A stretch of 64,000 nt of DNA, taken from assembly GCA_937903035.1 (NCBI GenBank), contig CALCZP010000004.1, positions 84,465 to 148,464 on the forward strand, written 5' to 3'. The notes beneath the pieces were generated by a model. The model was not told the origin of the DNA. It saw only the letters and a list, made by a program, of their open reading frames with translations, and ran no database searches. The stretch is from an uncultured bacterium (GTDB taxonomy: Bacteria > Patescibacteriota > Minisyncoccia > Phycocordibacterales > UBA9973). Position numbers and translations under genes: made by a program. Each line of letters opens with the position of its first letter. Position 1 is the first letter of the stretch. Positions 15,380 through 59,689 of this stretch are shown here, in pieces.

Positions 15380-15392
15380 TAATTTACATACT

Positions 15393-17324: not shown

Positions 17325-17332
17325 TAGGGTCA

Positions 17333-19664: not shown

Positions 19665-19671
19665 GGGTAGA

Positions 19672-36572: not shown

Positions 36573-40262
<3,690 letters not shown>

Positions 40263-40352
40263 ACCGCCACTATAGCATCATACGAAGAAAAGTGGATTAT
40301 TTGAGACTTTTGGCATATACTTGACCTATCTTATTAGCAAATAACTAGTCAT

Positions 40353-40490: not shown

Positions 40491-40491
40491 C

Positions 40492-40518
40492 AAAAAGCCC
40501 TCGATCGAGGGCTTTTTG
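40492..40518. terminator. hairpin AAAAAGCCCTCGATCGAGGGCTTTTT
   Basis: Palindrome with a GATC centre. It is a near-copy of the 9007-9048 hairpin core. Confidence 0.7.
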
Positions 40519-40522
40519 TTAT

Positions 40523-42374: not shown

Positions 42375-42379
42375 GGTAA

Positions 42380-44638: not shown

Positions 44639-44643
44639 GGTTA

Positions 44644-45204: not shown

Positions 45205-45205
45205 A

Positions 45206-45481
45206 TTATTTTCTTTTTAATTTATAAACCTTGAGAACTTCACCTTTGGCTTTATCTACTTGACCAGAAGACATTTGATGATGAACACAATGACCTAAAT
45301 GATTCTCCATTAATATATCCTCGACAGAAGACAAGCTTTGTTTAACCGCAGATGTTTGTGTGATTACATCAATGCAGTAAGTGTCATTCTCGACTAATTT
45401 TTGTAAACCGCGAACCTGCCCCTCAATACGTTTGAGTTGCTTAATAATTTTCTCTTTTCCTTTTTCATCTATATACTTCAT
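45206..45481 (-). CDS. csoR: CsoR/RcnR-family metal-sensing transcriptional repressor
   Basis: IEGQVRGLQKLVENDTYCIDVITQTSAV with metal ligands C..H..C. The ORF track's first codon is TTG; ATG at 45481 is used here. Confidence 0.85.
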   Translation of the reverse strand: MKYIDEKGKEKIIKQLKRIEGQVRGLQKLVENDTYCIDVITQTSAVKQSLSSVEDILMENHLGHCVHHQMSSGQVDKAKGEVLKVYKLKRK

Positions 45482-45492
45482 ATACAAAGAGT

Positions 45493-45513
45493 ATATACCC
45501 CCTAGGGGTATAT
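45493..45513. promoter_or_regulatory. candidate CsoR operator: near-perfect palindrome ATATACCCC-CTAG-GGGGTATAT
   Basis: GC-core inverted repeat 12 bp upstream of the csoR start. It resembles known CsoR operators (TACCC...GGGTA). Confidence 0.55.
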
Positions 45514-45560
45514 GTCAAATACATCAGTTAAATCAGGGGGGTGATATTGATAGTGTGAAT

Positions 45561-46925
45561 TTATATTCCGAAACTTTGAAGTTTGTTTTCTGGAGGTTTG
45601 TGCGTTCCATTCTTTATTGCTTCGGAAACTTTTCTGTATTCATCACCAAATTTCTTTCCAATCTTTTCAAACTCCGAAGGCTTCAGTTCTTTTGGACGAT
45701 TATATCGATACCAGCATCTGTATCGTATTGGCAGATCAGGATAATCTTTCATATTCACATAGGCGATATTCTCTATCTTTTCTGGTGGCTTATATTTATT
45801 CGCATTTGCAGGATTTTTTAGAATCATCATTTCTTTGAATGCCTCCTCGACATGCTTCCATGGTTGAGAGTTGTATCCATCTTCATCATCCAAGCTCATA
45901 CTGAAATCGCAATGACCATCATCTTGCCCAGGTATATACCAAATCTGTCCGTGTGCCCACATTGGAGCTGATATCTCAAAATCCGAAGCCTTGTCTCCTC
46001 CAGGATGTATTGACTCATCGTGTTTTTCTTCCATGTAGTAGTCGACGGATACAGTCGACATATCGAGCAAGTATTCGCGAGAAAAAATTGTATATAAACC
46101 GAATCTATCTGTGCCCGGAACACTCTTTTCCAAATCCTTGATTGATTTTGCGTCAGGATACCTTTGAGGCCAAAGTATTCGGTTACGATCGTCCAGAAGT
46201 GGATACGCTTTGAATAAGCCTGGCATTTCCCCATGCTTTATTCCTTTGTACAAAGTGATCATTATTGAACTTGGATGAAGCAGGTTTCCTAGAACAACAA
46301 TGTTTGTCTTCTCACTTCCGATAGACCAAATCTCTCCCATAAACCAATCATGAAAGAGACGTATCTGTTTGCCATCTTGGAATGATGTCATATCTTCCAT
46401 GTCATCACAGATGATGAGATCGGGACGATGATTGCGATACTTTAGTCCACGAATATTCTGTAACGCTCCGATGCACATGATTTTTGCTCCGTATTTCGGT
46501 ATCTCAATTGTAAACGCACCCCAATCTTCCTTGCTCGCTTGGAATGGACCAAGATCGTTTTTCAATAGCTCGTTCTCTTCAAGTTCTTGTTTGATGCTGT
46601 TGAAATGAGACTGTGACTGAACTCTGGTTTTAGACATGATTACTATAAACTTTTTCTGATGTTTTCCAAGAATACTCCACAGAGCATTAGAGAGGTTCAG
46701 AATGGTCGATTTTCCTGAACCTCGAAATGCCATGAACACGTTGAGCTTGTGTTGGTATTCTTCTGTAATGCGGAACATCTCCTTATGGAACCATGCGAAC
46801 TCGTACGTGATATGTCTCTGAAGATAGATACGGCAAAATGCCTCGTGATTTTCATATACGAGTGCTTTTCGTACGGCAACATCATTGATGATTGCCTGTT
46901 TAAGTTCAGGAGACAATTCTTTCAT
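45561..46925 (-). CDS. phage terminase large subunit-like ATPase/nuclease
   Basis: Walker A FRGSGKST, Walker B DLIICDDMED, and a C-terminal nuclease-like acidic region. Confidence 0.75.
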   Translation of the reverse strand: MKELSPELKQAIINDVAVRKALVYENHEAFCRIYLQRHITYEFAWFHKEMFRITEEYQHKLNVFMAFRGSGKSTILNLSNALWSILGKHQKKFIVIMSKTRVQSQSHFNSIKQELEENELLKNDLGPFQASKEDWGAFTIEIPKYGAKIMCIGALQNIRGLKYRNHRPDLIICDDMEDMTSFQDGKQIRLFHDWFMGEIWSIGSEKTNIVVLGNLLHPSSIMITLYKGIKHGEMPGLFKAYPLLDDRNRILWPQRYPDAKSIKDLEKSVPGTDRFGLYTIFSREYLLDMSTVSVDYYMEEKHDESIHPGGDKASDFEISAPMWAHGQIWYIPGQDDGHCDFSMSLDDEDGYNSQPWKHVEEAFKEMMILKNPANANKYKPPEKIENIAYVNMKDYPDLPIRYRCWYRYNRPKELKPSEFEKIGKKFGDEYRKVSEAIKNGTHKPPENKLQSFGI

Positions 46926-46927
46926 GG

Positions 46928-47314
46928 CTACTTAAAGTGAGATAGGGCCTCTTCGAGGAGTTCCTTTTGGTGCTGGTTAAGTTCGACTTTTTTCTGAGCA
47001 CGAATAAACATATCTTTCTTCTCCTCAGACATGTATGCTTTATGTCTGTTTCTGAGCCAGAATGCCACTGCTTGAAATTTCTTCTCTTTCAAGAGGGCGA
47101 CGAGCTGACTTTCAGATAGATCGTTTATATACTCCACACCATCGATCCTTGCGTTTTCAACATCGGTCTTGAAGTCATCGCTTTCTTCACACCAGCGGTA
47201 GAAAGTAGCTCTTGATATCCCGACTTTGGCACAAGCATGACTTGTGATTGGGACGGCACGTAGTTGTTCAAGCAGAAGTTCTTTCTGCTTCTTTATTGTT
47301 TTTACAGTAGCCAT
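46928..47314 (-). CDS. terminase small-subunit-like HTH protein
   Basis: HTH ACAKVGISRATFYRWCE. It is adjacent to and co-oriented with the large terminase. Start placed at the internal Met. Confidence 0.5.
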   Translation of the reverse strand: MATVKTIKKQKELLLEQLRAVPITSHACAKVGISRATFYRWCEESDDFKTDVENARIDGVEYINDLSESQLVALLKEKKFQAVAFWLRNRHKAYMSEEKKDMFIRAQKKVELNQHQKELLEEALSHFK

Positions 47315-47315
47315 A

Positions 47316-48638
47316 TTAGTTGATCTTCTTACGCTTTTTACCAGTCTCTTTCTCCCAGCGACGCATAATGACTTCGGCATAAACGTGTGATTTCTCCATA
47401 ACAAAGCATCTTCGACCCATCTTTATCGAAGCGATGAGAGTTGAACCAGAACCACCGAATGGCTCAAGGATGAGATTGTCTCTTTTGGTCAAAACTTTGA
47501 TGTATGGAATGAGAAGCTCAATCGGTTTTGTCCCGAAGATTATCTCTTGCCCTGATGATTTCTTATCTGCGGCTGGATGAGCAATGAAATCGGTAGGACA
47601 AATTTTCTTTCCTTTCTCATACTGCTCCCAGTGAGGTTTTCCTGCTGTGGCAAAGAGAGCATTCTCATACTCATTCTGAAAAATCGCATCTTCTTCTACT
47701 AGATTAAGAGGTGTGCTACCAGAGTTTCCAACCAAAGCGATATCTGTCTTGTTGAAGAATTTGTACTTAGACGAAAATCCCTGCATACGATTCGACACAT
47801 GCCACGTGATGGTGTTTCTATACTTCCAATGCTTCTCAAGAGCAGTCCAAATCGTCTTTAGATTTTTTGGATTCTCAAAGATGATGATTGAGAAGTCGGG
47901 CTTTTGCACTTTAGCAACATTTGCCATCCATAGATCCGAGAAGTTGTCCGGCAATACATCAGTCTCAAGATAGCGACGATTCTTCTTTGCTCCGAATCCA
48001 ACAGTTGGACCATCTTTACCTCGACCTTTTCCTTTGAGGTAATTAAGAATATATGGCGGGTCAGTGAGAACCATATCAGCTTTGTTTTCACCCATGAGTT
48101 TAATCATGTCAGCCTCAACAGTAGAGTCACCAATCATGATTCGAGAACCATCGAGGTCGTACACATCTCCTTTCTTTGCTTTGACTGTGATATCTAGCTT
48201 GTCGAGTTCCTTTTGGAGATCAAACTGTTCCTCATTTATTTCCGCAGGAAAAATATCGTCGATTTCCTCTGAGCTAAAACCGATATCTGTGAGAAGTGAC
48301 TCATCGAATTCAGCGAGGAGATCAAGATCAAACTCTCCTTGGTTTTTATTGAGTCGCAGGTTGAGTTCAGACTCCTTTTCAGGTGTGAGATTAACAAATA
48401 CGACAGGCATATTCTTGTACCCAAGCTCTTTGCAGACTTCAAGTCTGAAGTGACCGCCAACCACAACGTTCTTTCGGTCGGGATGGGAATTAACGATAAT
48501 GGGATCGACGTTGCCAAACCTCTTGATGCTCTCCGTGAGACTCTTCTTTTGTTCATCGCTCCACTTGCGTGGGTTCTTGTCGTTTGCGACAAGGCTGTCG
48601 ATTGAGATGTACTCAATCTTTAGATTTTCTTTATGCAT
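47316..48638 (-). CDS. ParB-like nuclease domain fused to an N6-adenine/N4-cytosine DNA methyltransferase
   Basis: N-terminal ParB/Srx motif (NPRKWSDEQKKSLTESIKRFGNVDPIIV) and an MTase with DPPY and EPFGGSGST. Confidence 0.85.
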   Translation of the reverse strand: MHKENLKIEYISIDSLVANDKNPRKWSDEQKKSLTESIKRFGNVDPIIVNSHPDRKNVVVGGHFRLEVCKELGYKNMPVVFVNLTPEKESELNLRLNKNQGEFDLDLLAEFDESLLTDIGFSSEEIDDIFPAEINEEQFDLQKELDKLDITVKAKKGDVYDLDGSRIMIGDSTVEADMIKLMGENKADMVLTDPPYILNYLKGKGRGKDGPTVGFGAKKNRRYLETDVLPDNFSDLWMANVAKVQKPDFSIIIFENPKNLKTIWTALEKHWKYRNTITWHVSNRMQGFSSKYKFFNKTDIALVGNSGSTPLNLVEEDAIFQNEYENALFATAGKPHWEQYEKGKKICPTDFIAHPAADKKSSGQEIIFGTKPIELLIPYIKVLTKRDNLILEPFGGSGSTLIASIKMGRRCFVMEKSHVYAEVIMRRWEKETGKKRKKIN

Positions 48639-49020
48639 ATACTTTGCTTTTTAATTAATTTCTAAAAAGCAAAAGACCATCTTTATCGTTAAGTTTCCTT
48701 AACTGCAAAGATGGTCTTTCGAGAAGCGGTGCACGACTCAAAAAACACTCTTAACTTTACAGTTAAAAGAAATTTCTTTGAGCAGTGTAGGAATATAACC
48801 TTCAGCATTTCCTACCTTAGTAGGGGTCTGCGAATCTATATCCAGCCGCTGTGAAGAATGATTGAAAGTGTAGAGAGTTCCTCCTAGTAGGAGGGTTTTC
48901 CCAGCCGTCAATCCGATATGAGGATGTCAATTGCTCTGAAAGTATTATCTACCTAACTAAACAAAAATACAAGACGATGTTTAGTTAAAGAATACATGAA
49001 AACCCTTTTTTAATTTGTCC

Positions 49021-49959
49021 TTATACTAAAAGGCTTTTCTTAAGTTCGGTCATTACAAAATCCTTAAATATAAGACAGTTATCCACAACTTGCTTAAGTA
49101 TGTATTCTTGTTCCTCAAACTCTTTTTCGAAAGAAACAGGTTCTACCTCCAATCTAAAACTTACTGATTTACCAGTCATGACCAATTCCATATTTGGAGG
49201 TAGCTTATTATAGTCTTGAAGTAATTCTTCATATTGAGAAGCCATGCCACTTAACTCAAGATCAACATATCCTTTCTCCATCTTATGAATAAGGCGTGTA
49301 TTTTTTAAAAGCCAGAAGGGACTGAAATACACAAAAGAAGATGCTGTCGGCTTTACTTTAGGTTGAGGCATATTTAATTCCTGTAATGTGCCTGATATAT
49401 ACAAATAATATTTCTTCCAAAACTCTGTAACAACCTCATCCTTTATAGCTTGATATCCTCTTCGTTCTTGTTCAATCGCAAGACGAAGAATTTCTGATTT
49501 GTACCATGATCGTAAAGAGGCGTCTTTAGAAAACCAAGTAAGTATTTCCTCATAAGAAACAGAGTACTCAAACTCACTTTTATTATCAATATAAGCCTTA
49601 GGAGCAACAAGAATGACCGCGGTCTCAATATTAGGTCCAGCAAGAAGTTCTGCACGCTTCATGTATCGATCATACTGAGCATCTTGAAACATAGCGTCAA
49701 CTTTGTTTTCAATTAGAAGAAACAATTTCTTTTGATTAAAAACAAATTCAGCTTGAATGTCAGTCTCTCCGAGCCCTGCGGTTGTCACACTTCGATATGC
49801 TTTTGAGAATATAAACTCTGGCTTACCAACAACTTTTAAAAATAACTTTTCTAAGCCTGTATTTGCATATAGTTCTTCTAATATCAATAAATCAATATCT
49901 CGTTCACGCACGGATTCGACTATCGGGAATGTTGCACCATTATTTTGAATTGCCTCCAT
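49021..49959 (-). CDS. protein with an N-terminal RecB/Cas4-like PD-(D/E)xK nuclease domain and a C-terminal domain of unknown function
   Basis: ERDIDLLILEE (motif I/II), ETDIQAEF, LLIENKVDA (ExK) and FQDAQY (QxxxY). Confidence 0.5.
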   Translation of the reverse strand: MEAIQNNGATFPIVESVRERDIDLLILEELYANTGLEKLFLKVVGKPEFIFSKAYRSVTTAGLGETDIQAEFVFNQKKLFLLIENKVDAMFQDAQYDRYMKRAELLAGPNIETAVILVAPKAYIDNKSEFEYSVSYEEILTWFSKDASLRSWYKSEILRLAIEQERRGYQAIKDEVVTEFWKKYYLYISGTLQELNMPQPKVKPTASSFVYFSPFWLLKNTRLIHKMEKGYVDLELSGMASQYEELLQDYNKLPPNMELVMTGKSVSFRLEVEPVSFEKEFEEQEYILKQVVDNCLIFKDFVMTELKKSLLV

Positions 49960-49964
49960 AATAG

Positions 49965-50867
49965 TTATTTCCTCCAGAAGATTAGCGACTTAAAGAACCC
50001 TGTGACTCGCTCTGTAAATGTTGGCTTTGGAGCTTCTCCCACTTTCGCAGGCGTAACTGGCTCTTCAACCTCGGTAGTTGTTGAGACCACAGGCTCAATC
50101 ACTTTTAGTGTCTCGACCTTTGGTTTCTGTTCAGCTTTTGGAGTAGGTTTAATTTCAGAAGCAGGAGTATTAACAACAACCTCTTTTACCTCCTCAATGA
50201 CTGGAGGGGTTGTTGTAGCTTTCTGTGATTTTTTAGCAAAGAAGTCAGGATACTTAGCTCGATAGAGTTGCTCAACTTTGTAAGCGTTCACTGGATTCAT
50301 TTTCTGAAGCAGTTTGAACTGAGCCACCTCTTGATCATCGGGGAGCGATTCAAGCCAATCGAAATATTCTCCGATGGTTATCTGCTTTTGTGGAGGCTGG
50401 ATTGCTTGCTCGTATACTTTGGTGTACTTGTCGTATTCGAGTTGCTGAATCTTGAGCTTGAGTTCGGCGATTTCAGCCTCTTTTGCTTTCATATCAATTT
50501 GAGATTGATATGAAGACCTTTGAGATTCTAGGTCAGCAATCTGTTTGGAGTACTTGGTATCAATTTCAGAAAGCTCCGCCTTGATTTGCTCCGTCAGACC
50601 ATAGGTGCCAGTGAGATAGTTTTTCTTGGCATCTCGTTCGTTCTTTAATTCAAGAATTCTGTTATCAATGTTTCCAATTGATGATGCAGAATTATTTTGC
50701 AATTGTGCCTCAAGTGATTTGAGACGATATTCTAAAGCTGACTTTTCCTCCTGCTGTTTGATGGATACATCTGCGGGCAGATAGTTATAGTCGGTTGCGT
50801 GTGCGATGGTTGCTTGGAATACAAATATTCCTAGCACGAACACGCATGTTCGTATGATTTTGTTCAT
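49965..50867 (-). CDS. secreted coiled-coil protein with a Pro/Thr/Lys-rich C-terminal region
   Basis: Signal peptide MNKIIRTCVFVLGIFVFQATIAHA, long heptad-like segments, and a PTPKAEQKPK tail. Confidence 0.5.
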   Translation of the reverse strand: MNKIIRTCVFVLGIFVFQATIAHATDYNYLPADVSIKQQEEKSALEYRLKSLEAQLQNNSASSIGNIDNRILELKNERDAKKNYLTGTYGLTEQIKAELSEIDTKYSKQIADLESQRSSYQSQIDMKAKEAEIAELKLKIQQLEYDKYTKVYEQAIQPPQKQITIGEYFDWLESLPDDQEVAQFKLLQKMNPVNAYKVEQLYRAKYPDFFAKKSQKATTTPPVIEEVKEVVVNTPASEIKPTPKAEQKPKVETLKVIEPVVSTTTEVEEPVTPAKVGEAPKPTFTERVTGFFKSLIFWRK

Positions 50868-50871
50868 AAGC

Positions 50872-51042
50872 CACTGTAGCGGTTTTAGCCTATTAACTGA
50901 TAATAGGCGGAGAATCTTGAGTCTTGCGACTGAAGACTCCTCGCCATTGTGATCCAACCTTTCGGTCAGACCCATATATCCTTTCGGATACACGACCGCT
51001 ACAGTGACTCTGACGAGGAGTCTTCAATACTGTAGCGGTTTT
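50872..51042. repeat. interleaved repeat system A1-B-A'-B'-A2 in the leader of the 49965-50867 gene
   Basis: A1 CACTGTAGCGGTTTT at 50872-86. B TGAAGACTCCTCG at 50931-43. A' ACCGCTACAGTG at 50995-51006. B' CGAGGAGTCTTCA at 51014-26. A2 ACTGTAGCGGTTTT at 51029-42. Confidence 0.75.
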
Positions 51043-51185
51043 GCTATTCCGACCATATCCTAGGAAACTAAGGGTTTTCTAGGGGTTAGGTCTTTGTTGT
51101 ACAAGAACATGATAGCAAATTTTTGGCTATCTTTCTAGACTTTAGCTTACATTTAGGGAGTTGCGAAGCCTGAGTTGTCGACAGT

Positions 51186-51731
51186 CTATTTTGTCTTCTT
51201 TTGCGAACCAAGACCTTTCATTAGATATTCCTTTTCATGACCATGGACCTTGTCCATAACAGCAAGTAAATCCTCAAAAATATTAAAAGCTTCTCGAAGG
51301 TGTTCACTGGCTTTGGTTTGAACTTTACTGTCATAACTTGCCTGATCTTTAATATCTTTCATTTCAGAGTAATCAACTAATTTATATTCTGCTTCAACAT
51401 TGTGCAAAACAAGATTCCTGCTCTTCTTGAATTTACTTATCCTCGAATAAAGTTTTTCATCTAGCACATCCTTGTTTTTCAAAACCAAAAAGATTGCCAT
51501 ACCATCGAAACCAACACGCCCTTTTATATTATGAAGATGGTTAATAAGAGATTGCGCTTCAAAAGAGTTGAAAATCTGTCTCAAGATTGATTCACCAGTA
51601 TTATCAATAATTGAATCAGCACCTGCGAATGCTTGAGCAAAATAACCCTTATTTGCTGGATCAAGCACGAACTTACCCCAATCTATTGAGATACCAGAAT
51701 ATTTACCATCCCATGTGACTCTCGATTCCAT
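51186..51731 (-). CDS. hypothetical protein, last gene of the CHAT operon
   Basis: 181 aa. Its start lies 2 nt from the stop of the 984-aa gene. Confidence 0.5.
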   Translation of the reverse strand: MESRVTWDGKYSGISIDWGKFVLDPANKGYFAQAFAGADSIIDNTGESILRQIFNSFEAQSLINHLHNIKGRVGFDGMAIFLVLKNKDVLDEKLYSRISKFKKSRNLVLHNVEAEYKLVDYSEMKDIKDQASYDSKVQTKASEHLREAFNIFEDLLAVMDKVHGHEKEYLMKGLGSQKKTK

Positions 51732-51733
51732 AA

Positions 51734-54676
51734 TTATTTGAGTACATCTTTTAGCCCCCAGAACATACTGCTTCCTTTCTCAATCAGGACGTTAATGAGA
51801 TCTTCGACCTTAGCCTTAAACGAAGGATTTTTGTAGATAATTTCTAGAGCTTCTTTAATTTCTCCATCAATACTGAATAAAGGTGCACGTCGATTCGTGT
51901 TCAACTCGTCTTCATTCAACAAATACTGCTTAATGACACCTAAGGTACTTTCAGGATCAATAGTTGCGAATATTTTCAAACGTCGAGTAAGCCCATAATC
52001 CCAATCAATATCACCTTTTGATTTCTCAAGAGTTATTGCAAGATTCTTGATGATGATTTTCTCATCAATTATCTCCTTATCAGGATTCACCCAAAATCCA
52101 AAACCAGAGAAGGCTTTCGGCTCAATCGGAATACCTGTTGAAATAATCCAATTCCAAAACTCTACAAGTTTATCCTTGCTTACATTGTTTTCCTTAAACC
52201 AATCATCGCCAGCCTGACTTCGAGTGATACAACTTCGACCAATAAAGGATACGAATTCGTAATGACGAGCTTCGTTTGGTGTCTTCCAAAATAGTTCAAA
52301 GAGTGGATCAGTAATTTTGAAATCAAAATGAGCATAAGCCAGTGCCAAATGGACAGCCAGTGTCTCATCAAGACCTTTCAAATATTTCCTATCTGGATAA
52401 ATATTTGGATTTAGCTTTATCGCATACTCGTAATAGCCACGAAGTTCATCAAATAACTCCTTGTACAGAGAACTTGCCAGGTATCCTTCCCAAGTAGCAA
52501 AATACAGTTTTTCTTTTCCTGATTCTTTAGGGAATATCTTCGATAGGAGTCCTTTAACAAAAGTAATGTCACGGAAGTAGAATGACGCAAGGAACTGACC
52601 AAGGGTGAATCGAACCGCATTCGATGTTTCTGTATCAAGAACCTGCTCAAACAAAACCTTAACTTCATTTGAAAGTGTCTTGTTGCTTTCGTTGTAAGCA
52701 AATTGGACAAAAGCTCGATACGCCTGTCCTCGAACGGAATTTATCGCAACATGAGCAGGTTCATTGGACTCACGCTTATCATCTTCAACATCAGGACTGC
52801 TCTTAATGGTAAAGAGATATTTGATGATGCTGAATATTTTTGCCTGATTATCTTTGAATGTATTTGAGTCCTTGATGGTTGCAAGTATCTCAAGAAGAAC
52901 ATCCGCTATAGATTTATGGACGGTTATCCAATCAGCAAGATAAACCCGCTCTTCCATTGGCTTAAACTCTTCTTTCTCACCCGATTGTCGAATGAGATCA
53001 AAGAAATTAATAACCTGTATGAATTGCTCATCTGTGAACGATTCCTTTGCCCTCAAACTGTCTTCAACTTGTCGCAGTATTGAGTAAACATAGTTTGGAG
53101 AAATAACACCCCTGTCAAAAAACTTATTAAGGTTTGATAGATAATCAGCCTTTCGAGCTTTAAAGTCTTCCTTAATGGCATCACCTAAGCCTTCGGGACC
53201 ACGAGGACTTAAGAAATCATCATTCTTATACTTTTCCTTCAACACCGCTGGAGATGCGTCAGTTTTCAAATGATCAATGAGAGCATCAATGGTCATTTCT
53301 GATGGATTAAATGGTGTTTTGTGATTCACAATACCTCCCATTCCGCCCATGACAGTAGGATGAGGAGTAATCTGACCATCTTCTAACAACTTTCCGAAGA
53401 TGGACTCAGCCTTTGTAATTTCTTCAGGAGTTAGGTACTTTTTTATATAAGTAAGTATCTCTAAACCGTCACGTTTCCTCCATTTTTCTTTATCAGCATC
53501 GTCTAGTTTTGCTCCGTAGTATTTAATAACATTTTCAACATATTCTCGTTGCTCGGTATCCTTATCTAGAGCGTTAAACCCAGCAATCAACCCCTGGTGA
53601 TATTCAGCTCCTGTATCAATCTCAAAGTAGCGTTCACCAACATTAAACACACGGAACAAGAATTCCTTTATCTCCGACTTAAACGCATCAGGACATCGTG
53701 TAATTGCATATAACTTAAGCCTCCAAGAGGTAAGAGCGTCGGGTAATGTGGCAATATTTTCTAAATAGATGCGACGAACCTCTGCGACATCATCACACTT
53801 ACCGCCAAGAATTATCTCAATGAGAGTTTTTATTGTTGCTATGAAATTCTGAATATCTTCTCGGAAATGAGACCTCTTGTCCGTATCTAATTGTAGTGTG
53901 AATACACTCACATCGAGTAGATAGAATGGCTCTGACTTGTCAAAGACGGTTCCGTCTTTTTCTACACCAATGTCAGTAATTTTTGTAAGGATTTCAGACA
54001 ACAACTTCAAAAACTTTTCCTTATCGGGATTGTTTTGATCAAGAATAAGTTCAAATATTCCAGTCTCGCTTACATCACCGAGATAGAATAACTTATCTGT
54101 TATTGAGAAACGCTCAATGTTGGCAAACTCTTCTTTATCCCTAACCGTAAGTACTACTCTAGCGAGATCGTAGATTGCCTCATAATCCTTTTCTTGAGCA
54201 AACTTCTCAGTCATCTTCTTGTATTCATATCCGGAACGACCAAAACGAGACATGAGTTTCAACCAGTTATCTGAATACATTTTTGGAAGAATCTTCTTTA
54301 TCTGAGCAACTGGCAAAAGACCAGTGATCCAGAAGAACCTGTCGATGACCTCAGGGTTGAAGGTATCTTTTGAAATTGGTGTTGAAAGAATTATCTCAGC
54401 GACTAATTCAGGTAGTTTTTCTGCCATTCGAGTAAGATACTCAAGTTCAGAAAGACGATATCCATATTTACTAGGATCTTCCGACTTCTTTTTTAATTCA
54501 TCAAAAAGACCGTTATCAAAAAACCACTTAAGCCAAGCTTCGTTTGCCTTCGAAAATAGATAGCGCTTTGAGTCTTCATTGCTTTCGATAAAATTTTTTG
54601 CAACTTCAATAGATGCAACTGATGGGCCAGCTGTTACGAATTCGTCTATTTTTTTGTGTATTTGAAGTTGGTTCAT
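51734..54676 (-). CDS. large (about 980 aa) predicted alpha-helical protein of unknown function, translationally coupled to the CHAT protease
   Basis: ATG (MNQLQIHKK) 4 nt after the CHAT stop. The protein is Leu/Lys/Glu-rich and helical. No NTPase motifs seen. Confidence 0.55.
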   Translation of the reverse strand: MNQLQIHKKIDEFVTAGPSVASIEVAKNFIESNEDSKRYLFSKANEAWLKWFFDNGLFDELKKKSEDPSKYGYRLSELEYLTRMAEKLPELVAEIILSTPISKDTFNPEVIDRFFWITGLLPVAQIKKILPKMYSDNWLKLMSRFGRSGYEYKKMTEKFAQEKDYEAIYDLARVVLTVRDKEEFANIERFSITDKLFYLGDVSETGIFELILDQNNPDKEKFLKLLSEILTKITDIGVEKDGTVFDKSEPFYLLDVSVFTLQLDTDKRSHFREDIQNFIATIKTLIEIILGGKCDDVAEVRRIYLENIATLPDALTSWRLKLYAITRCPDAFKSEIKEFLFRVFNVGERYFEIDTGAEYHQGLIAGFNALDKDTEQREYVENVIKYYGAKLDDADKEKWRKRDGLEILTYIKKYLTPEEITKAESIFGKLLEDGQITPHPTVMGGMGGIVNHKTPFNPSEMTIDALIDHLKTDASPAVLKEKYKNDDFLSPRGPEGLGDAIKEDFKARKADYLSNLNKFFDRGVISPNYVYSILRQVEDSLRAKESFTDEQFIQVINFFDLIRQSGEKEEFKPMEERVYLADWITVHKSIADVLLEILATIKDSNTFKDNQAKIFSIIKYLFTIKSSPDVEDDKRESNEPAHVAINSVRGQAYRAFVQFAYNESNKTLSNEVKVLFEQVLDTETSNAVRFTLGQFLASFYFRDITFVKGLLSKIFPKESGKEKLYFATWEGYLASSLYKELFDELRGYYEYAIKLNPNIYPDRKYLKGLDETLAVHLALAYAHFDFKITDPLFELFWKTPNEARHYEFVSFIGRSCITRSQAGDDWFKENNVSKDKLVEFWNWIISTGIPIEPKAFSGFGFWVNPDKEIIDEKIIIKNLAITLEKSKGDIDWDYGLTRRLKIFATIDPESTLGVIKQYLLNEDELNTNRRAPLFSIDGEIKEALEIIYKNPSFKAKVEDLINVLIEKGSSMFWGLKDVLK

Positions 54677-54680
54677 AATT

Positions 54681-55718
54681 TTATACACATGAATATAGAA
54701 GTGGAATATACTCTCTCTTCTTCGGGCCTGAATAATATGATCCTAAAGATGTTTTATATACCTCCTCAATTTCTTTCCCAGTCGTAAGATTTTTATAGAA
54801 TAGTTCTGTAAATTCTTTTGCAGAAAGTTCACCAACAGGATCTCGATACGCGATTACATAACGCGAACAACCAGATTTGATTATTTTAAAAGCAAGACTC
54901 TCTTTGTTTAAAATTCCACCCCCAGAATAGCAAAGTGACAGAAAAATTAATTTTTGATTACTATCCTTTATAAGTTCAACAAAATCATCTGGGGAAAATT
55001 TTTTTGTCTCTTTATATTTTGTATGGTCGTCATCTTCCAAACAAAGATTTCCATCCTGATCACCGTGCATAACAATATGAACCAGCGAATAATCCTTCCA
55101 AGAAACACCCTTAATCGACTCAGTAGTTGTGTGTTTTAATAGTAAAATACTATCAACTCGAAAATATTGCTGATTATTTTCAATAAGAAAATGTAAAGAG
55201 TTGTATATAGATTTAATCTCATCATCCATGACTGCCTTCAAGTCAGATCCCACACCTTCATGGGCATGAGACATAAGCATTACAAGATTATTGTCTTCTT
55301 TTACTTGGGGCTCTCTAACTGGGGTAGAAACTTTTCTTACTATATATAAATTATTATCTTTGAGATTTTCCCATGGAAGCTCGAGAAATACAGAAAAATC
55401 AGATCTGATTGTTAGCTGATCATCTTCTAAATTTTCAGCAATTTTAATTTCCTTATTTACGAATTCTAAAACCTTCTGAAGGTCTGGTCCTTGTTTCGAG
55501 AAAACAGGATTAATATCTGAACTTTTACCTATACCAATTTCTGGTGTTACAACTGTTGTTACGTCTTTGTTTCTTAAATACTCACTATGAAAATCATCGA
55601 ACGATATTAATACAAACTGACCGTTAGATTTATTGGTTTTAACACTTAAATACAAACCTCCTTTTATTGATTCTTTTTCGCCATCTTTAACTTGTTTAAG
55701 TTCGCAATAGATTTCCAT
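54681..55718 (-). CDS. caspase-like (CHAT / peptidase C14 fold) protease with an N-terminal domain of unknown function
   Basis: His-Cys dyad in caspase order: SLVHIVMHGDQDG ... about 40 aa ... KLIFLSLCYSGGG. Confidence 0.6.
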   Translation of the reverse strand: MEIYCELKQVKDGEKESIKGGLYLSVKTNKSNGQFVLISFDDFHSEYLRNKDVTTVVTPEIGIGKSSDINPVFSKQGPDLQKVLEFVNKEIKIAENLEDDQLTIRSDFSVFLELPWENLKDNNLYIVRKVSTPVREPQVKEDNNLVMLMSHAHEGVGSDLKAVMDDEIKSIYNSLHFLIENNQQYFRVDSILLLKHTTTESIKGVSWKDYSLVHIVMHGDQDGNLCLEDDDHTKYKETKKFSPDDFVELIKDSNQKLIFLSLCYSGGGILNKESLAFKIIKSGCSRYVIAYRDPVGELSAKEFTELFYKNLTTGKEIEEVYKTSLGSYYSGPKKREYIPLLYSCV

Positions 55719-55739
55719 AATTTACTAATAATTCAACGC

Positions 55740-56264
55740 CTAAGAAACAGAGGGTAATCCTAGTCGGTTCAGAGTTATTGCCTCGAAGAAATAATCACAA
55801 TCCACCTCTTTAATATAAGCGAGCACATCTTTATACGCTGGTGCCTGAAACCACTCACTTAGAATATAGATATATTCAACTTTAACGCCTAGAGAATTGA
55901 GAAGTTTTTCATACTGTCGTTTTTTGAAATGACATGTCTGTAATTTTTCATCAACAGACCCTGCAACATTTTGAAATTTGATTTCAATTACATAAAAAGA
56001 ATTGGTTGCCAATACAAAAATAGCATCATCGGGAAGGAGTTTTTTGGAAAGTATTTCCTTATGATTTACACCTTTCTCCTCTAAAAATTTATATAGACGA
56101 TTTTTCCGAAGATTAAGAGCGACTTTTTCTCCTTTAAAAAGAATCGAGCCATCTTCATGCACCTCATAACCAGGCACAGTTTTAAGCACTTCAAGAAAAT
56201 CCACTTTGCCCTCAAAGTGAAGTCCTGATTTTGTATTTGCTCCTCCTACGCCACCAATTTTCAT
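55740..56264 (-). CDS. small PD-(D/E)xK nuclease: either the restriction endonuclease of the adjacent DpnII-like R-M system or the first gene of the CHAT operon
   Basis: LPDDAIFVLATNSFYVIEIKF gives a PD...ExK motif. It lies 21 bp upstream of the CHAT gene on the same strand and is divergent from the Dam-like MTase. Confidence 0.55.
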   Translation of the reverse strand: MKIGGVGGANTKSGLHFEGKVDFLEVLKTVPGYEVHEDGSILFKGEKVALNLRKNRLYKFLEEKGVNHKEILSKKLLPDDAIFVLATNSFYVIEIKFQNVAGSVDEKLQTCHFKKRQYEKLLNSLGVKVEYIYILSEWFQAPAYKDVLAYIKEVDCDYFFEAITLNRLGLPSVS

Positions 56265-56334
56265 ATAACGTGATTATCTCACAAAAACGCCCTTAAATCT
56301 AGGATATAAAGGTAAAAAATGATAAAATGAAATT

Positions 56335-57252
56335 GTGAAGACAGATAACGTAAAAAAAGCAAAACCATTTCTAAAATGGGTCGGTGGCAAGGGTCAATTA
56401 TTGACTCAATTTCAGAGTCTCTTTCCTAAAAAATACAACTCGTATTTCGAACCATTTATTGGTGGAGGTGCTGTCTTTTTTTCTATCAACCCACAAAAAG
56501 CACACATAAACGATATAAACAAAACACTAGTTCAGACCTACACGCATATTAAGAATGATGTAGAGAAATTAATAAAATCTCTTGCAAAACTTGAAAAAGA
56601 ATTCCTTGCAAAAGACACTGAGGCACGAAAAGAATTCTATTACTCGATACGAGAAAAATACAACTCTTTATCTCACGAGGATTTCAAGAAAAGTCTCTAC
56701 TTCTTATTCTTTAACAAGACTGCGTTTAATGGTGTCTACCGAGAAAATTCAAAAGGTGGATTCAATGTGCCGATGGGTAGCTATAAAAATCCTAAAATCG
56801 TAGATGAGGAAAATCTTAGAGAGGTTTCCAAAATGCTTTCAAACACCAAAATAACAAGTGGTTCATTTGTTGATGCTGTAAAGAATGCAAAGGCTGGTGA
56901 TTTTGTTTACTTCGACCCTCCATACCACCCACTTTCCGAGACATCTAGTTTTACAAGTTATAGCAAGGATTCTTTTTCTAAAGATGATCAGATAAAGCTC
57001 CGAGATTTATTTGTAGAACTCGACAAGAGAGGTGTATACGTAATGCTCAGTAACTCAAGTGCGCCTTTTATTCAAGAAATATACTCTGGATACAAACAGA
57101 TTCCTGTTTATGCTAGTCGAATGATCAACTCAAAAGCAGATAAGCGCGGAAAGATATCAGAAGTCGTAATAATTAATTACGATCCGCAATCAAATCTTCA
57201 AAGCGTTTTTGAGAAAGATTTAAGTATTTCTTCTCAGTATCAATACCTATAA
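56335..57252 (+). CDS. Dam-family (alpha-class, D12) N6-adenine DNA methyltransferase
   Basis: KPFLKWVGGKGQLL and DPPY motifs. The start is GTG at 56335. A C-terminal extension overlaps the convergent MTase gene. Confidence 0.85.
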   Translation: MKTDNVKKAKPFLKWVGGKGQLLTQFQSLFPKKYNSYFEPFIGGGAVFFSINPQKAHINDINKTLVQTYTHIKNDVEKLIKSLAKLEKEFLAKDTEARKEFYYSIREKYNSLSHEDFKKSLYFLFFNKTAFNGVYRENSKGGFNVPMGSYKNPKIVDEENLREVSKMLSNTKITSGSFVDAVKNAKAGDFVYFDPPYHPLSETSSFTSYSKDSFSKDDQIKLRDLFVELDKRGVYVMLSNSSAPFIQEIYSGYKQIPVYASRMINSKADKRGKISEVVIINYDPQSNLQSVFEKDLSISSQYQYL

Positions 57253-57994
57253 ATCTTCGTCCGTGTTTCTTCGCGGCGATTCCTGTAGTTGAGCTTCCTG
57301 TAAAAGGGTCGAGAACTATGTCTCCCTTATTTGTACTAGCGAGTACGATTCGCTCAAGAAGTGAAAGTGGTTTTTGCGTTGGATGTTTGGTGAACTTCTT
57401 CTCTTCTTTCTTTGGTGGGTTAACTGCCCAAACCGAACGCATTTGTAAGTTCGGCTTCTTTATAAAATCTTCTGGCCACTCGCCATTTTTCATTAGTTCA
57501 TAATTGAAAGTGTGTTTTGCTTTCTTATGTTTTCTAGCCCAAAGAATTGTTTCGTGACTTGCTGTAAAAAATCGACAACTTAGATTTGGAGATGCGTTCG
57601 GTTTGAACCAAGTAATATCATTCAAAACATGGAAACCAATTGACTGAATAGCATGGCCACATTGATAGATAGAATGATAGGTACCACTAACCCAAATGGT
57701 GCCATGGGGTTTTAAAACACGATAACAAGCTTCTAGCCATCTTTTATGAAAGGCATAGTCAGCATCGAAGCCTTTGCTTTTATCCCAATCACCTTTGTTA
57801 ACGCTTACCATTTTCCCTGCGTGCACAGTAAAACCTCCATTTGAGAGCATATATGGAGGATCTGCAAAAATCATATCGATTGAGTTTTCTGGGAGAGTAT
57901 TTAAAAGCTCTATTGAATCAGCCAAATAGAGCACAAAATCCTTGTGCATAAAATACGGTTTTTGTTTTATTGAAGCTAAAATCTTTTTTGCCAT
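57173..57994 (-). CDS. beta-class N6-adenine DNA methyltransferase, DpnA / M.MboIC-like
   Basis: DMIFADPPY...VSVNKGDWDK...HPTQKP...DPFTGSSTTG, collinear with DpnA-type methylases. Confidence 0.85.
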   Translation of the reverse strand: MAKKILASIKQKPYFMHKDFVLYLADSIELLNTLPENSIDMIFADPPYMLSNGGFTVHAGKMVSVNKGDWDKSKGFDADYAFHKRWLEACYRVLKPHGTIWVSGTYHSIYQCGHAIQSIGFHVLNDITWFKPNASPNLSCRFFTASHETILWARKHKKAKHTFNYELMKNGEWPEDFIKKPNLQMRSVWAVNPPKKEEKKFTKHPTQKPLSLLERIVLASTNKGDIVLDPFTGSSTTGIAAKKHGRRFIGIDTEKKYLNLSQKRFEDLIADRN

Positions 57995-58117
57995 TTATAA
58001 GTACATTTTAGCTTAAAAGACATAAAACCTGAATAAAATTTACCTAAACTTACCTACAGTTTATCTACTTCGGACGCTCTAGACTCCTAAGAGGTTCAGC
58101 GTCATCAATGTGTTTGT

Positions 58118-59443
58118 ATGAAAATACAAAATCCGCTACAAGTGACGCCTGACGAGGTTGAGGCAAAACAACCGATTAAGTACTGCTTATATGCTCGTAA
58201 ATCAACCGAACAAGAAGATAAGCAGGCATTATCAATTGAATCGCAAGTCAGAGAGATGCAGGCTCTGGCTGAGCGAGAGAAACTGAACGTGGTCGAAATT
58301 AAGCGAGAAGCACACTCCTCTAAAGAAGTCGGACAGAGGCCTGTATACAATGAACTTCTCGCTGAAATCAAACAAGGAAAGTTTAATGGGATACTAACAT
58401 GGGCACCAGACCGCTTATCGAGAAATGCCGGTGACTTGGGAGCGGTAGTAGACCTGATGGATCAGAAGCTTCTTCTAGAGATCCGCACCTATGGACAGAA
58501 ATTTACAAACAATCCAAATGAAAAGTTCCTCCTCATGATTCTCGGATCACAGGCAAAGCTTGAGAATGACAACAAGATGGTGAATGTGAAGCGAGGACTC
58601 AGAGCAAGGTGTGAGATGGGCTTATGGCCATCAGTACCTCCAACAGGATACTTGAGCAATCCTGATAGAAATAGAAAATGTGAAGTAATAACCGATCCAG
58701 CAAGAGGTCACATTATCAGGCAAATGTTCGAGAAAGTGGCATATGATGGCTGGTCAGGACGAAAGCTGTATAAATGGATGGCACATGACCTCAAATTTAA
58801 AACAAAGAATGGCAAACCATTAACATTGAGCAATATTTACATAATTCTCAAAAACACTTTCTACTACGGAGAATTTGAATACCCAAAAGCAAGTGGACAA
58901 TGGTATGTCGGAAAGCATGAACCTGTGATAACCAAAGACTTGTACCTACAGGTTCAAGATAAAATTACATCGGATTCAGTAATACATGCACAAGACAAGG
59001 AGTTTGCATTCACAAAGATGATGACATGTGGATTGTGTGGATCGGGAGTGACGGCAGACGAGAAATTTAAGAAACTCAAAGATGGTACAACGGCACGATA
59101 CGTGTACTACGGATGCACGAGATTTAGGGATAAAGATTGTCCGTGCGGATACATACGAGAAGAAGACCTGATTGAACAACTCGCAAATATACTGGATACC
59201 GTGTCACTGAACGAGATTGGGATGAAAGACAAGATCAAATCAGAGATTGAAGCACATACAGAATTTCAAGAATCAGTACTTGGAAAAGCAGTTAAAGAGA
59301 AGATAAAGATTAAGGAGGTCGATATACGAAACTTCGCCAAGCATATCTTAAGAAAGAGACCGATCTACGAAAAGAGAGAGCTATTAAGCAATCTGAGAAG
59401 CAAGTTGGTGTTAAAAGACAAACAGATAAGCATGATGAATTAG
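58118..59443 (+). CDS. large serine recombinase (resolvase catalytic domain, recombinase domain, zinc ribbon)
   Basis: Catalytic CLYARKSTEQ Ser motif, LSRN, recombinase domain, and CGLCGS...C zinc ribbon. Confidence 0.85.
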   Translation: MKIQNPLQVTPDEVEAKQPIKYCLYARKSTEQEDKQALSIESQVREMQALAEREKLNVVEIKREAHSSKEVGQRPVYNELLAEIKQGKFNGILTWAPDRLSRNAGDLGAVVDLMDQKLLLEIRTYGQKFTNNPNEKFLLMILGSQAKLENDNKMVNVKRGLRARCEMGLWPSVPPTGYLSNPDRNRKCEVITDPARGHIIRQMFEKVAYDGWSGRKLYKWMAHDLKFKTKNGKPLTLSNIYIILKNTFYYGEFEYPKASGQWYVGKHEPVITKDLYLQVQDKITSDSVIHAQDKEFAFTKMMTCGLCGSGVTADEKFKKLKDGTTARYVYYGCTRFRDKDCPCGYIREEDLIEQLANILDTVSLNEIGMKDKIKSEIEAHTEFQESVLGKAVKEKIKIKEVDIRNFAKHILRKRPIYEKRELLSNLRSKLVLKDKQISMMN

Positions 59444-59454
59444 GCAAACAAAAA

Positions 59455-59478
59455 ACCACCCGAAGGGGTGATTTTTTG
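59455..59478. terminator. short hairpin CACCC-gaag-GGGTG plus T6 after the recombinase gene
   Basis: Read directly. Weak stem. Confidence 0.4.
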
Positions 59479-59618
59479 TTCTGGATACTGCGCTCAGCAG
59501 GTATGCAATTTACGGAATAGTATCGTGTGTTTTACCTTAGTTCGAGCCCATGACTGGTGCTCAGAACTTTTATTCCTAAACGGCGATTTTAGCCGTCTAG
59601 GTAGGTCTCACATGACTG

Positions 59619-59689
59619 CTGCCGAACCTGGACTCGAACCAAGATAAACGGTACCAGAAACCGTTGTCCTACCATTAGACGATTCGGCA
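59619..59689 (-). tRNA. tRNA-Gln (anticodon CTG)
   Basis: Minus strand TGCCGAATCGTCTAATGGTAGGACAACGGTTTCTGGTACCGTTTATCTTGGTTCGAGTCCAGGTTCGGCAG folds as a cloverleaf: 7-bp acceptor with U1-A72, D-loop with GG, anticodon loop TTCTGGT, T-loop TTCGAGT, discriminator G. Confidence 0.8.

Follow-up and report, generated by a model that had tools for sequence, protein, structure and literature searches.

An 18.9-kb serine-recombinase island with a capsid-less terminase operon beside tRNA-Gln in a Patescibacteria genome

We analysed a 64,000-nucleotide stretch of contig CALCZP010000004.1 from an uncultured bacterium of the Patescibacteriota (this whole stretch is the window), in which a block of accessory genes lies beside a tRNA-Gln(CTG) gene. 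Comparison with other copies shows that the block spans ~40,68x-59,617, or 18.9 kb. The explanation that we favour overall, with a probability of roughly 0.6, is that it is a mobile element carried by a large serine recombinase (LSR) and transferred in a manner similar to that of phage satellites. The two parts of this reading are not equally firm. We consider it very likely that the 18.9 kb constitute an LSR-borne mobile element, belonging to a family of such elements in Patescibacteria; the satellite-type transfer step is a tentative proposal, for which we would put the odds somewhat below even. The element includes a packaging-type operon that is phage-derived and capsid-less, and whose large terminase subunit (TerL) retains only the ATPase domain in this lineage.

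The initial annotation of this DNA had described an acquired, mobile accessory island adjoining tRNA-Gln, with terminase genes, no virion genes and a cargo of defence genes, and this description is borne out. Every gene that it listed was found again, namely the small and large terminase subunits, the ParB-methylase fusion, a nuclease-family protein, a secreted coiled-coil protein, the CHAT operon and the methylases. Its feature list did not include a gene for the LOOT RNA, which turned out to belong to the backbone of the element family.

Boundaries and insertion site of the island

Related loci from other assemblies and contigs, numbered between L005 and L074, were compared with the window; L049 and L061 are two loci on one contig, and L062 and L063 are the paired loci of another copy. 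The nearest loci in the genome collection come from metagenome-assembled genomes of Patescibacteria (Paceibacteria/Nomurabacteria-type), with a top FtsX identity of 73%, and homologues of the island proteins are labelled likewise. The GC content is 0.387 within 40,686-59,617 compared to 0.451 and 0.444 in the flanks, in agreement with the earlier impression of an AT-richer block. The tetranucleotide distance from the flank profile deviates too, at 0.24-0.40 inside the island and 0.13-0.18 outside it, and the whole of 40.7-59.6 kb is deviant in composition.

The boundaries were derived from segment-wise nucleotide identity to copies in other genomes, and not from repeats. On the tRNA side, the window matches L061 at 92-96% in the LSR gene, 96% in a motif and hairpin unit that follows it and 97% in the segment adjoining the tRNA, compared to 75% in the tRNA itself and 59% beyond it, and the drop from 96-97% to 75% falls exactly at the tRNA 3' end. 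On the far side, identity to L049 is 90% for the ParB-methylase gene, 86% for the small terminase subunit (TerS), 90% and 72% for the 5' and 3' parts of TerL, 90% for csoR, 94-95% for the other copper genes, 100% for the cupredoxin gene and 254/254 positions for a 254-bp tail. Overall, identity to this copy is 90-100%, except where the 3' end of TerL diverges (72-74%), and the last 690 bp before 40,676 are 100% identical. Homology stops at 40,676 against L049, and at 40,685 against the more distant L052. The initial annotation had drawn the far edge at the terminase gene (45,561), which was too narrow, as the true boundary at ~40,68x places the copper operon and 254 bp of a repeat-rich stretch inside; its suggestion that the copper genes could belong to the same acquired segment was correct, since high identity runs through csoR, copA, the cupredoxin gene and the tail before stopping abruptly at 40,676-40,685.

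Other copies show that the island is mobile. LSRs that are 99% identical in protein occur in two other assemblies (L061; L062/L063), both beside a tRNA-Gln(TTG). The copy on the L049/L061 contig measures 18.7 kb, lies among other host genes (YkuD/DnaX and Abi_alpha/Eco57I-like) and bears different defence cargo, and the L062/L063 copy is also next to the ATP synthase operon. In the window, the host neighbours are ftsX-ftsE-prfB on the tRNA side and, on the far side, enolase (38270-39556) and other housekeeping genes. As the L049/L061 copy sits at a different tRNA-Gln with different flanks, the whole 18.9 kb has moved as a unit. Island-free relatives were also found, with tRNA-Gln after ftsX and unrelated sequence downstream, in L005, L008, L015, L022 and L028. 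A block fixed in one place in all relatives, with no shift in composition, is thus not what we see.

A smaller mobile unit was also considered, wherein the 13.9-kb block from the LSR to TerL (~45,517-59,445) alone is mobile and was inserted downstream of tRNA-Gln, where a terminator hairpin adjoined the csoR promoter of an existing copper cassette. L012 and L052 join the motif and hairpin directly to the csoR promoter (...TTTTTGTTTGACTTGC..ATACCCCCTAGGGGGTAT), and the window junctions each match one half of this sequence; the joined inner ends form a 23-nt imperfect palindrome (TGATGTATTTGCCTAATTCATCA, 9/11 positions). A copper operon follows tRNA-Gln directly, with no LSR, in L008 and L028. 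Identities are also uncoupled, being 84% for TerL but 96-100% for the copper proteins in L049, and 97% for TerL but 79% for csoR in L063. We initially favoured this inner junction as the true att and empty site, and demoted it because of the segment-wise identities: similarity to L061 is still 96-97% beyond the LSR stop codon, across an end region of 174 bp, and does not drop until the tRNA, similarity to L049 continues through the copper operon with full identity over the final 690 bp to 40,676, and the copy at the other tRNA-Gln shows that the entire 18.9 kb travelled together. The TTTG(A)C common to these junctions is accounted for by the csoR -35 box, which overlaps the terminator T-run, and a palindrome of this kind has an estimated chance expectation of about 1 in 150 when offsets are allowed. 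Separate mobility of the inner block is improbable in our view, although its arrangement may record the first joining of the LSR-to-TerL block and the copper cassette.

The LSR carries the catalytic-serine motif YARKST (YARKSTEQ, residues 25-32) in its Resolvase domain, followed by a Recombinase domain and a zinc ribbon with the cysteine cluster CGLCG...YYGCTRFRDKDCPCG. It has at least 8000 homologues at E<1e-60, which form more than 100 clusters at >=80% identity. The LSR and tRNA genes are convergent, with 174 bp between the LSR stop codon and the 3' end of the tRNA. This 3' end is the integration site, on the attL side, and the insertion after it was most likely catalysed by the element's own LSR. 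Other LSRs, 33-40% identical to this one and oriented likewise, immediately follow tRNA-Gln(CTG) in L010, L015, L021 and L031. These four loci gave no match to the ParB-methylase, TerS or TerL and no LOOT, which indicates that several unrelated LSR islands use tRNA-Gln(CTG).

The tRNA-side junction reads GGCAG/CAGTCA/TGTGAGACC and the far junction reads CCGTGA/CAGTCA/GCCGAATTAGAG. At three independent loci the host half-sites beyond the junction resemble one another (GCCGAATTAGAG, GCCAATTCGAG and GCCAACTTGAG), as would be expected if a site-specific serine integrase had acted through a short crossover. The LSR would recombine an attP, in which the tail end is joined to the conserved end region with CAGTCA as its core, with an attB consisting of the tRNA-Gln 3' end and about 12 nt downstream (GCCRAAYTNGAG). 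The reconstructed sites are ...CCGTGACAGTCATGTGAGACC... for attP and ...GGTTCGGCAGCAGTCAGCCGAATTAG... for attB, and the predicted recombinant junctions are ...AAGTTCACAACCGTGACAGTCATGTGAGACCTACC... and ...CCAGGTTCGGCAGCAGTCAGCCGAATTAGAGTCTG..., respectively. A direct repeat of the tRNA-Gln 3' end near the far junction, which the initial annotation had proposed to look for, is absent: only the 6-bp CAGTCA recurs, no better than in shuffled sequence, and a search for direct or inverted repeats bracketing the block gave nothing beyond chance. No tRNA 3' repeat is expected for a serine recombinase. Nor is there support for a pseudo-tRNA 3' fragment at the end of the tail, as alignment of the tRNA 3' half to the far junction returned CAGTCA alone, with a score below the shuffle mean.

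The element-borne end region between the LSR and the tRNA comprises a 93-bp post-tRNA segment starting CAGTCATGTGAGACC, then an invariant 33-nt motif (ATTGCATACCTGCTGAGNGCAGTANCCAGAAC, with its core GCATACCTGCTGAGCGCAGTA at 59486-59506), and then a terminator hairpin at ~59450-59477; motif and hairpin form a unit at 59,446-59,515. The motif is unchanged in L012, L050, L052, L053, L061 and L062, with the LSRs of the bearing elements being 62-99% identical, and is absent after tRNA-Gln in the island-free relatives. This invariance points to a candidate protein-binding DNA site. A structured RNA was considered for the region and rejected, since there is no covariation save in the terminator stem. 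The motif-hairpin unit is also seen without an adjacent recombinase, upstream of csoR in L012 (14,530-14,600) and L052 (16,267-16,340) and upstream of a DUF347/ApbE/NQR operon in L053 (17,845-17,915), and may mark cassette boundaries. Partial copies of tRNA-Gln occur at some loci, namely a second, truncated tRNA-Gln 48 bp downstream of the intact gene in L018 (13,595-13,782) and, in L061 (11,570-11,800) and L062 (9,635-10,010), several host-side repeats of pieces from the 5' part of the tRNA. Such copies have the appearance of traces left by recurrent recombination at the tRNA genes concerned.

The terminase operon, the LOOT RNA and the element family

The packaging-type operon consists of three intact and translationally coupled open reading frames (ORFs), encoding a ParB-methylase fusion, a TerS-like protein and a TerL-like ATPase. 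The ParB-methylase is 62-97% identical in amino acid sequence across elements. The TerS-like protein is a small helix-turn-helix protein encoded directly upstream of TerL, with a 2-nt gap to the TerL start; it gave a weak HTH_28 match, and its length of 128 aa is the same in 6/6 close (type B) elements compared. In TerL, alignment shows intact Walker A (FRGSGKST) and Walker B (LIICDDMED) motifs, as befits a packaging ATPase, but the nuclease motifs of full-length relatives (IDLA..ADxTA, VEDVGYQ and HDDLADA) are absent, and there is no match to the PF17289 nuclease, which is present in those relatives. Patescibacteria TerL relatives of 340-454 aa likewise lack all three nuclease motifs and have a variable tail. 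An AlphaFold model gives a pLDDT of ~90 for the ATPase domain, with the C-terminal ~160 aa having low pLDDT and no beta-sheet fold, and the top Foldseek matches are the TerL ATPase domains of T4, PhiV-1, HK97, T7, D6E and P74-26, with E about 1e-7. The ratio of nonsynonymous to synonymous substitution rates (dN/dS) against L049 is 0.11 for TerL, 0.04 for TerS and 0.03 for the ParB-methylase, at an unsaturated dS of 0.6-0.9, so the operon is under strong purifying selection. TerL is a maintained nuclease-less packaging ATPase, and not a pseudogene.

The initial annotation had offered a phage satellite or a decayed prophage as the origin of the block. The former is plausible; in the latter case, the structural genes would have been deleted and the terminase genes would be functionless leftovers. 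It is true that TerS, TerL and the ParB-methylase are typical phage genes, that TerL is truncated relative to phage TerL, and that related contigs are classed as viral by IMG/VR. However, the same capsid-less gene set recurs in the same order in at least 15 elements of different hosts with no structural remnants, and the dN/dS values, the intact coupled ORFs and the constant TerS length in close elements all speak of genes that are maintained. Searches of 40-60 kb with Pfam, PHROGs and NCBIfam matched neither portal, capsid, tail and lysis genes nor remnants of them, and the intergenic spaces of the island are too small to hide remnants of structural genes. TerL has no portal or head genes beside it, as csoR begins 73 bp past its stop codon and leaves no room for lost genes, whereas portal and head genes do follow the closest phage TerL, that of the Mu-like BalMu-1. 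We regard the decayed-prophage reading as effectively excluded.

The family of related elements was assembled from the genomic contexts of homologues of TerL (54-97% identity), of the LSR and of a 984-aa cargo protein. At least 15 related Patescibacteria elements share a common backbone, none of which carries capsid, portal or tail genes. From the tRNA, the order is end region, LSR, cargo slot 1, LOOT, a non-conserved ORF, ParB-methylase, TerS, TerL, an optional cargo slot 2 and a tail rich in GAGAC. This window-type order is seen in L049/L061, L050, L052, L053, L056, L062, L064, L067 and L068, and a permuted form in L046-48, L058 and L059 has ParB-methylase, in some cases a further methylase, TerS, a full-length TerL, 0-2 genes and the LSR, all on a single strand. 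The cargo changes at sharp breakpoints in fixed slots, and includes KAP NTPase with ResIII and a methyltransferase (MTase), Bub, CBASS, Shedu, an AAA_15/21 ATPase, a BglII restriction-modification system, and the Dam-containing triad that is also found in the window. The element proteins of L050 share 63-73% identity with those of the window, compared to 49% for the host FtsX, which indicates horizontal spread. Control or replication genes are present in some relatives, namely ImmA/HTH in L050, a LexA-like gene in L058 and a primase-helicase of the archaeo-eukaryotic primase (AEP) type in L073. We found no description of this element family in a search of a limited literature collection.

Several of these relatives have further features of their own. 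In L053 the first element is immediately followed by a second one (11,053-17,650), which has TfoX_N, a serine recombinase of 474 aa and a rolling-circle Rep (PF23343) besides small ORFs, and which stops at a copy of the motif-hairpin unit. In L050 (11,320-15,320), TerL is followed by sigma-70, HSP20, GroES and GroEL genes and then by a 44-bp tail-like fragment, and these heat-shock genes may be a slot 2 cassette or host DNA. L073 and L074 have the AEP primase-helicase upstream of ParB-methylase, methylase, TerS and full-length TerL; both independent assemblies break right after TerL, which suggests a repeat or variable junction there. L046, L047 and L048 are capsid-less IMG/VR contigs catalogued as viral, presumably due to their terminase genes, and two full-length TerL genes stand in tandem in both L047 and L048. 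The dense overlapping ORFs in all frames of these two contigs suggest that they probably derive from a higher-GC host outside the Patescibacteria.

The LOOT RNA (Rfam RF03000) is a backbone component and the hallmark of the family. Its match in the window is marginal in score but covers the full-length model, including the conserved CCUAA..AUGG and the GNRA loops, and Rfam matches of 48-81 bits occur in L046, L049, L050, L052, L053, L056 and L058. A covariance model built from 8 LOOT copies found the RNA at 13 independent element loci, 5 of them outside the training set, and at 0 of ~38 island-free loci. The ORF that follows LOOT differs from element to element, which makes it unlikely that the RNA is a leader for one gene family; in the window this ORF encodes the secreted coiled-coil protein, which is 92% identical to its counterpart in L049 and 38% to that in L053, and has no family match. 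The same literature collection gave no published function for LOOT, an orphan Rfam family. At the opposite end of the element, the noncoding tail has 8 GAGAC/GTCTC sites per 260 bp compared to 0.54 expected (P~1e-7), the densest such cluster of the window. GAGAC clusters are similarly found at the TerL-distal end of L049, L052, L053, L064 and L066, as well as in L012 and L060.

In the transfer step of our favoured explanation, the excised circle would spread as a phage satellite in the capsids of a helper phage. TerS would recognise part of the element itself, perhaps its GAGAC repeats, and the TerL ATPase would drive or divert packaging, with the helper having to supply the DNA cut; LOOT would perhaps serve transfer alongside the operon and the repeats. 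The layout is that of a satellite, in that an integrated 18.9-kb element without virion genes has its own integrase and a packaging-specificity gene. Several observations weigh against the explanation. With regard to the transfer step, no helper phage was identified among the data examined, TerL is without the nuclease needed for cutting DNA in packaging, and the IMG/VR scan of viral contigs gave no close relative of the window TerL. The window copy has no replication module or repressor, as protein family searches recognised no repressor, antirepressor, primase or replicase gene in 40.7-59.6 kb, and the control and replication module of a PICI-like satellite is thus missing from it. With regard to insertion, no isogenic empty site was found, with 7/7 contigs of identical FtsX carrying the island or stopping too early; the excised attP junction was not found either, the sole IMG/VR match to the predicted junction being an unrelated sequence; and the 6 bp shared by attL and attR are not significant alone. 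Finally, the LSR-less cassettes of L012 and L052, in which the motif-hairpin unit adjoins csoR, indicate that the LSR-to-TerL block and the copper cassette may have joined secondarily.

Some of the same observations could be accommodated by the same LSR island not being packaged, with the ParB-methylase/TerS/TerL-ATPase operon, and perhaps LOOT, domesticated for the benefit of the island or its host. The nuclease-less TerL and TerS could act as decoys that poison the terminase of an infecting phage, akin to satellite interference proteins, or the operon could provide self-protection or maintenance by methylation and ParB-like DNA binding; the island would then move by other means, such as natural transformation via type IV pili. 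This would suit a TerL that has lost the nuclease required by every autonomous headful or cos packaging system, the otherwise defence-rich content of the element, the lack of any helper phage or capsid gene in all of the at least 15 elements, the missing replication module of the window copy, and the presence of a pilin-like N_methyl protein in the window host. On the other hand, full-length, nuclease-bearing TerL occurs in the same capsid-less layout (L046-48, L058 and L059), showing that the module was once a complete terminase, of which a pure decoy has no need. TerS, together with the repeat-rich tail near the recombination site, has the look of a recognition protein paired with a target of its own on the element, and element proteins are far more alike between distant hosts than host proteins are, which argues for efficient horizontal spread. 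We consider a non-packaged island rather unlikely, if less so than the separate mobility of its inner block.

A bolder idea, which we regard as a long shot, is that LOOT works together with the capsid-less packaging module, either as an RNA subunit or guide of the TerL ATPase or as the element's recognition or regulatory RNA. If this were true, the elements would be a new class of satellite that brings an RNA-dependent motor to helper capsids, with DNA cut by the helper or by the ParB-like domain.

Cargo and neighbouring genes

The features of the island and its immediate surroundings are collected in the table.

Table 1. Positions of annotated features in the window, listed from the tRNA-Gln gene to the far junction.
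Feature	Position	Strand	Details
tRNA-Gln(CTG)	59618-59689	-	host DNA; ARAGORN; Rfam tRNA 55.9 bits; sole tRNA of the window
Element-borne end region, 174 bp	59444-59617	-	96-97% identical to L061 and 87-88% to L062 despite differing tRNA and flanks
LSR, 441 aa	58118-59443	+	PF00239 (Resolvase, E 3.6e-20), PF07508 (Recombinase, E 3.7e-13), PF13408 (Zn_ribbon_recom, E 2.2e-8); PHROG 95 integrase, E 1e-64
Cargo slot 1, variable	51177-58071	.	sharp homology breaks at 58,046-58,072 and 51,176-51,191 against L061 and L062
Beta-class N6/N4 methylase, CcrM-like	57173-57994	-	slot 1 triad
Dam-family methylase	56335-57252	+	slot 1 triad; TIGR00571, 307 bits, above cut-off
174-aa PD-(D/E)XK-like protein	55740-56264	-	slot 1 triad; sub-threshold PD-(D/E)XK and REase_II matches; no PDB relative
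CHAT-domain protease	54681-55718	-	CHAT operon; His/Cys dyad context HIVMHGD...LSLCYSGG
984-aa alpha-solenoid protein	51734-54688	-	CHAT operon; predicted all-alpha, model pLDDT 87.8
181-aa protein	51186-51731	-	CHAT operon
LOOT RNA (Rfam RF03000)	50951-51092	-	47.4 bits, gathering score 46.4
Secreted coiled-coil protein, 301 aa from MNKIIRT	49965-50870	-	longer ORF to 50993; signal peptide ending AHA/TD
Small extra cargo insertion	48641-49964	-	missing from otherwise colinear L049 and L062
PD-(D/E)XK_4 nuclease-family gene	49021-49959	-	inside extra insertion; PF14281, E 4e-5
Intergenic hairpin	48672-48719	.	inside extra insertion; inverted repeat
ParB_N + N6/N4 DNA methylase fusion	47316-48638	-	first gene of three-gene operon; PF02195, PF01555; PHROG 498, E 2.5e-80
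TerS-like small HTH protein, 128 aa	46928-47314	-	PHROGs 4044 (E 1.6e-9), 4102, 24579 and 1482, all terminase small subunit
TerL-like packaging ATPase without nuclease domain, 454 aa	45561-46925	-	PHROG 38, E 7e-35, residues 17-275 alone; no Pfam match
Cargo slot 2, copper-resistance operon	40940-45515	-	Pfam; 90-100% nucleotide identity to L049
CsoR box/promoter	45493-45519	-	palindrome ATACCCCTAGGGGGTAT upstream of csoR
csoR	45206-45487	-	PF02583, E 1e-24
DUF305	44644-45204	-	slot 2
CopA-type P1B ATPase	42380-44638	-	slot 2
HMA-DsbD_2	41343-42374	-	slot 2
Cupredoxin	40940-41374	-	slot 2
Terminal noncoding tail, 8 GAGAC/GTCTC repeats	40686-40939	-	ends ...CCGTGACAGTCAGCC at far junction, attR side ~40,676-40,685
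Structured noncoding stretch, host side of far junction	40263-40675	.	outside element; no homology to any related element

In L061 and L062, slot 1 is occupied by KAP-NTPase, ResIII and MTase genes or by one 932-aa gene. The window has two sets of genes in this slot, a restriction-modification-like triad of two methylases and a 174-aa protein, and the CHAT operon, both of which are probable defence systems. The triad is kept as a unit in L052. Both methylases had initially been called GATC-type, and this is secure for one of them: in comparison with DpnII/MboI-type systems the Dam call is firm, the second enzyme is classed more broadly as a CcrM-like N6/N4 methylase of the beta class, and the 174-aa protein is an endonuclease candidate with sub-threshold matches alone.

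The CHAT protease, the solenoid protein and the 181-aa protein together form a candidate defence system. The 984-aa family comprises 139 clusters, from Patescibacteria-type sources only and with no annotation, and is cargo beside an LSR in three elements (window 51,734-54,688; L046 422-3,463; L071 10,001-12,949). Its small neighbours in these elements are unrelated, being the CHAT protein in the window, a 242-aa protein in L046 and a 213-aa protein in L071, an arrangement that resembles a conserved sensor with swappable partners. Some more specific assignments were tried and rejected. For the fold of the 984-aa protein we obtained generic alpha-solenoid matches alone (best TM-score 0.30, to the Avs4 sensor region); the 181-aa protein has no similarity to the extra part of longer (~1150 aa) homologues of the 984-aa protein; and the CHAT protein has none to the 213-aa partner in L071.

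Slot 2 encodes CsoR-regulated copper efflux, as it combines CsoR and an operator palindrome with a P1B ATPase and HMA domains (PF00122, PF00702 and PF00403). The order of TerL followed by csoR is seen in the window, L049, L052, L062/L063, L065 and L066, and a copper operon lies beside the element in L059 and L068.

On the host side of the far junction, the window has a small lysine-rich ORF of 45 aa (MGKRDTSLGAKVKSK...AKKKK) at 40354-40491 on the plus strand. It is ended by a perfect bidirectional hairpin at 40,496-40,515, whose flanks (AACAAAAAG...CTTTTTGTT) are similar to the flanks of the hairpin within the element. A metagenome scan gave no relative of a 223-aa protein of the left flank. 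Further away, the window genes at 13,841-21,100 have homologues directly after tRNA-Gln, in the same relative orientation, in L005, L014 and L018. In the window they are separated from the integration hotspot by a housekeeping stretch at 21-40 kb (enolase, DHODH, ABC-F and the pilin-like protein), and this displacement points to a large rearrangement beside the integration site.

Comparison with known systems

The Patescibacteria (candidate phyla radiation) are a large and mostly uncultured group with tiny genomes, in which DNA exchange is little understood, and the locus described here is a precisely delimited example of such exchange. The family appears very common in Patescibacteria, and moves defence systems (restriction-modification, CHAT, KAP, Bub, CBASS and Shedu) and copper resistance between distant hosts. 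The conserved LSR and the reconstructed att sites are candidate genetic tools for organisms that are now without any. The listing of such elements as viral in IMG/VR matters for virome statistics.

Known phage satellites (SaPI/PICI, cf-PICI, PICMI and P4-like) resemble the island in their size of ~5-20 kb, site-specific integration by a conserved gene, lack of a full virion gene set, own TerS-type gene and defence cargo. They differ in using a tyrosine integrase where the island has a large serine enzyme, and in having repressor, primase-replicase and capsid-remodelling genes that the island copy lacks. Among satellites, TerL is otherwise known only from the capsid-forming cf-PICIs, whereas the TerL of the island is nuclease-less and comes without capsid genes. 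The island backbone also has LOOT and a ParB-methylase, its hosts are Patescibacteria, and its induction by a helper phage is hypothetical. Phages and islands with large serine recombinases (phiC31, Bxb1, TP901-1, SPbeta and SCCmec with ccr) share the presence of an LSR with resolvase, recombinase and zinc-ribbon domains at one end and the lack of long junction repeats, and SCCmec is likewise a non-phage island with resistance cargo at one conserved chromosomal site. In contrast to these, the island targets the 3' flank of tRNA-Gln and has a backbone with a terminase-type operon and an RNA gene; the structural genes of phiC31-type phages are missing from it, as are the ccrAB pair and the cch-type helicase of SCCmec, and we recognised no recombination directionality factor in it.

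The closest counterparts of the island TerL are Mu-like (PHROG 38; Bacillus phage BalMu-1 and Faecalibacterium phage FP_Mushu), with 26-32% identity in the ATPase domain and the same fold as solved TerLs, but the island protein lacks the C-terminal RNase-H-like nuclease, and no portal or head genes follow it. By analogy, a packaging ATPase without a functional nuclease, together with a structured RNA of ~120-140 nt, would recall the phi29 motor (gp16 and its packaging RNA, pRNA), and the phi29 and phi28 ATPases are among the fold matches of the island TerL, at ranks 13 and 40. LOOT, however, has no detected similarity to pRNA, the island encodes no portal, capsid or terminal protein, and relatives with a full-length TerL (L046 and L058) also carry LOOT. 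Arrays of tRNA islands such as tycheposons and Islander-type elements are similar in reusing a tRNA 3' end, in having fixed cargo slots and in their tandem or degraded copies, which in the present family include a second copper cassette and second LSR in L052, remnants in L012 and the second LSR and Rep element of L053. Such arrays mostly involve tyrosine integrases and direct repeats of tRNA fragments, whereas the island has a serine enzyme and no significant repeat. Overall, the element belongs with known kinds, namely serine-integrase islands and phage satellites, to which it adds three unexpected traits: a conserved terminase operon in elements that never carry capsid genes, a TerL cut down to its ATPase domain and yet under strong purifying selection, and an orphan RNA, LOOT, which previously lacked a known context and is now the hallmark of these elements.

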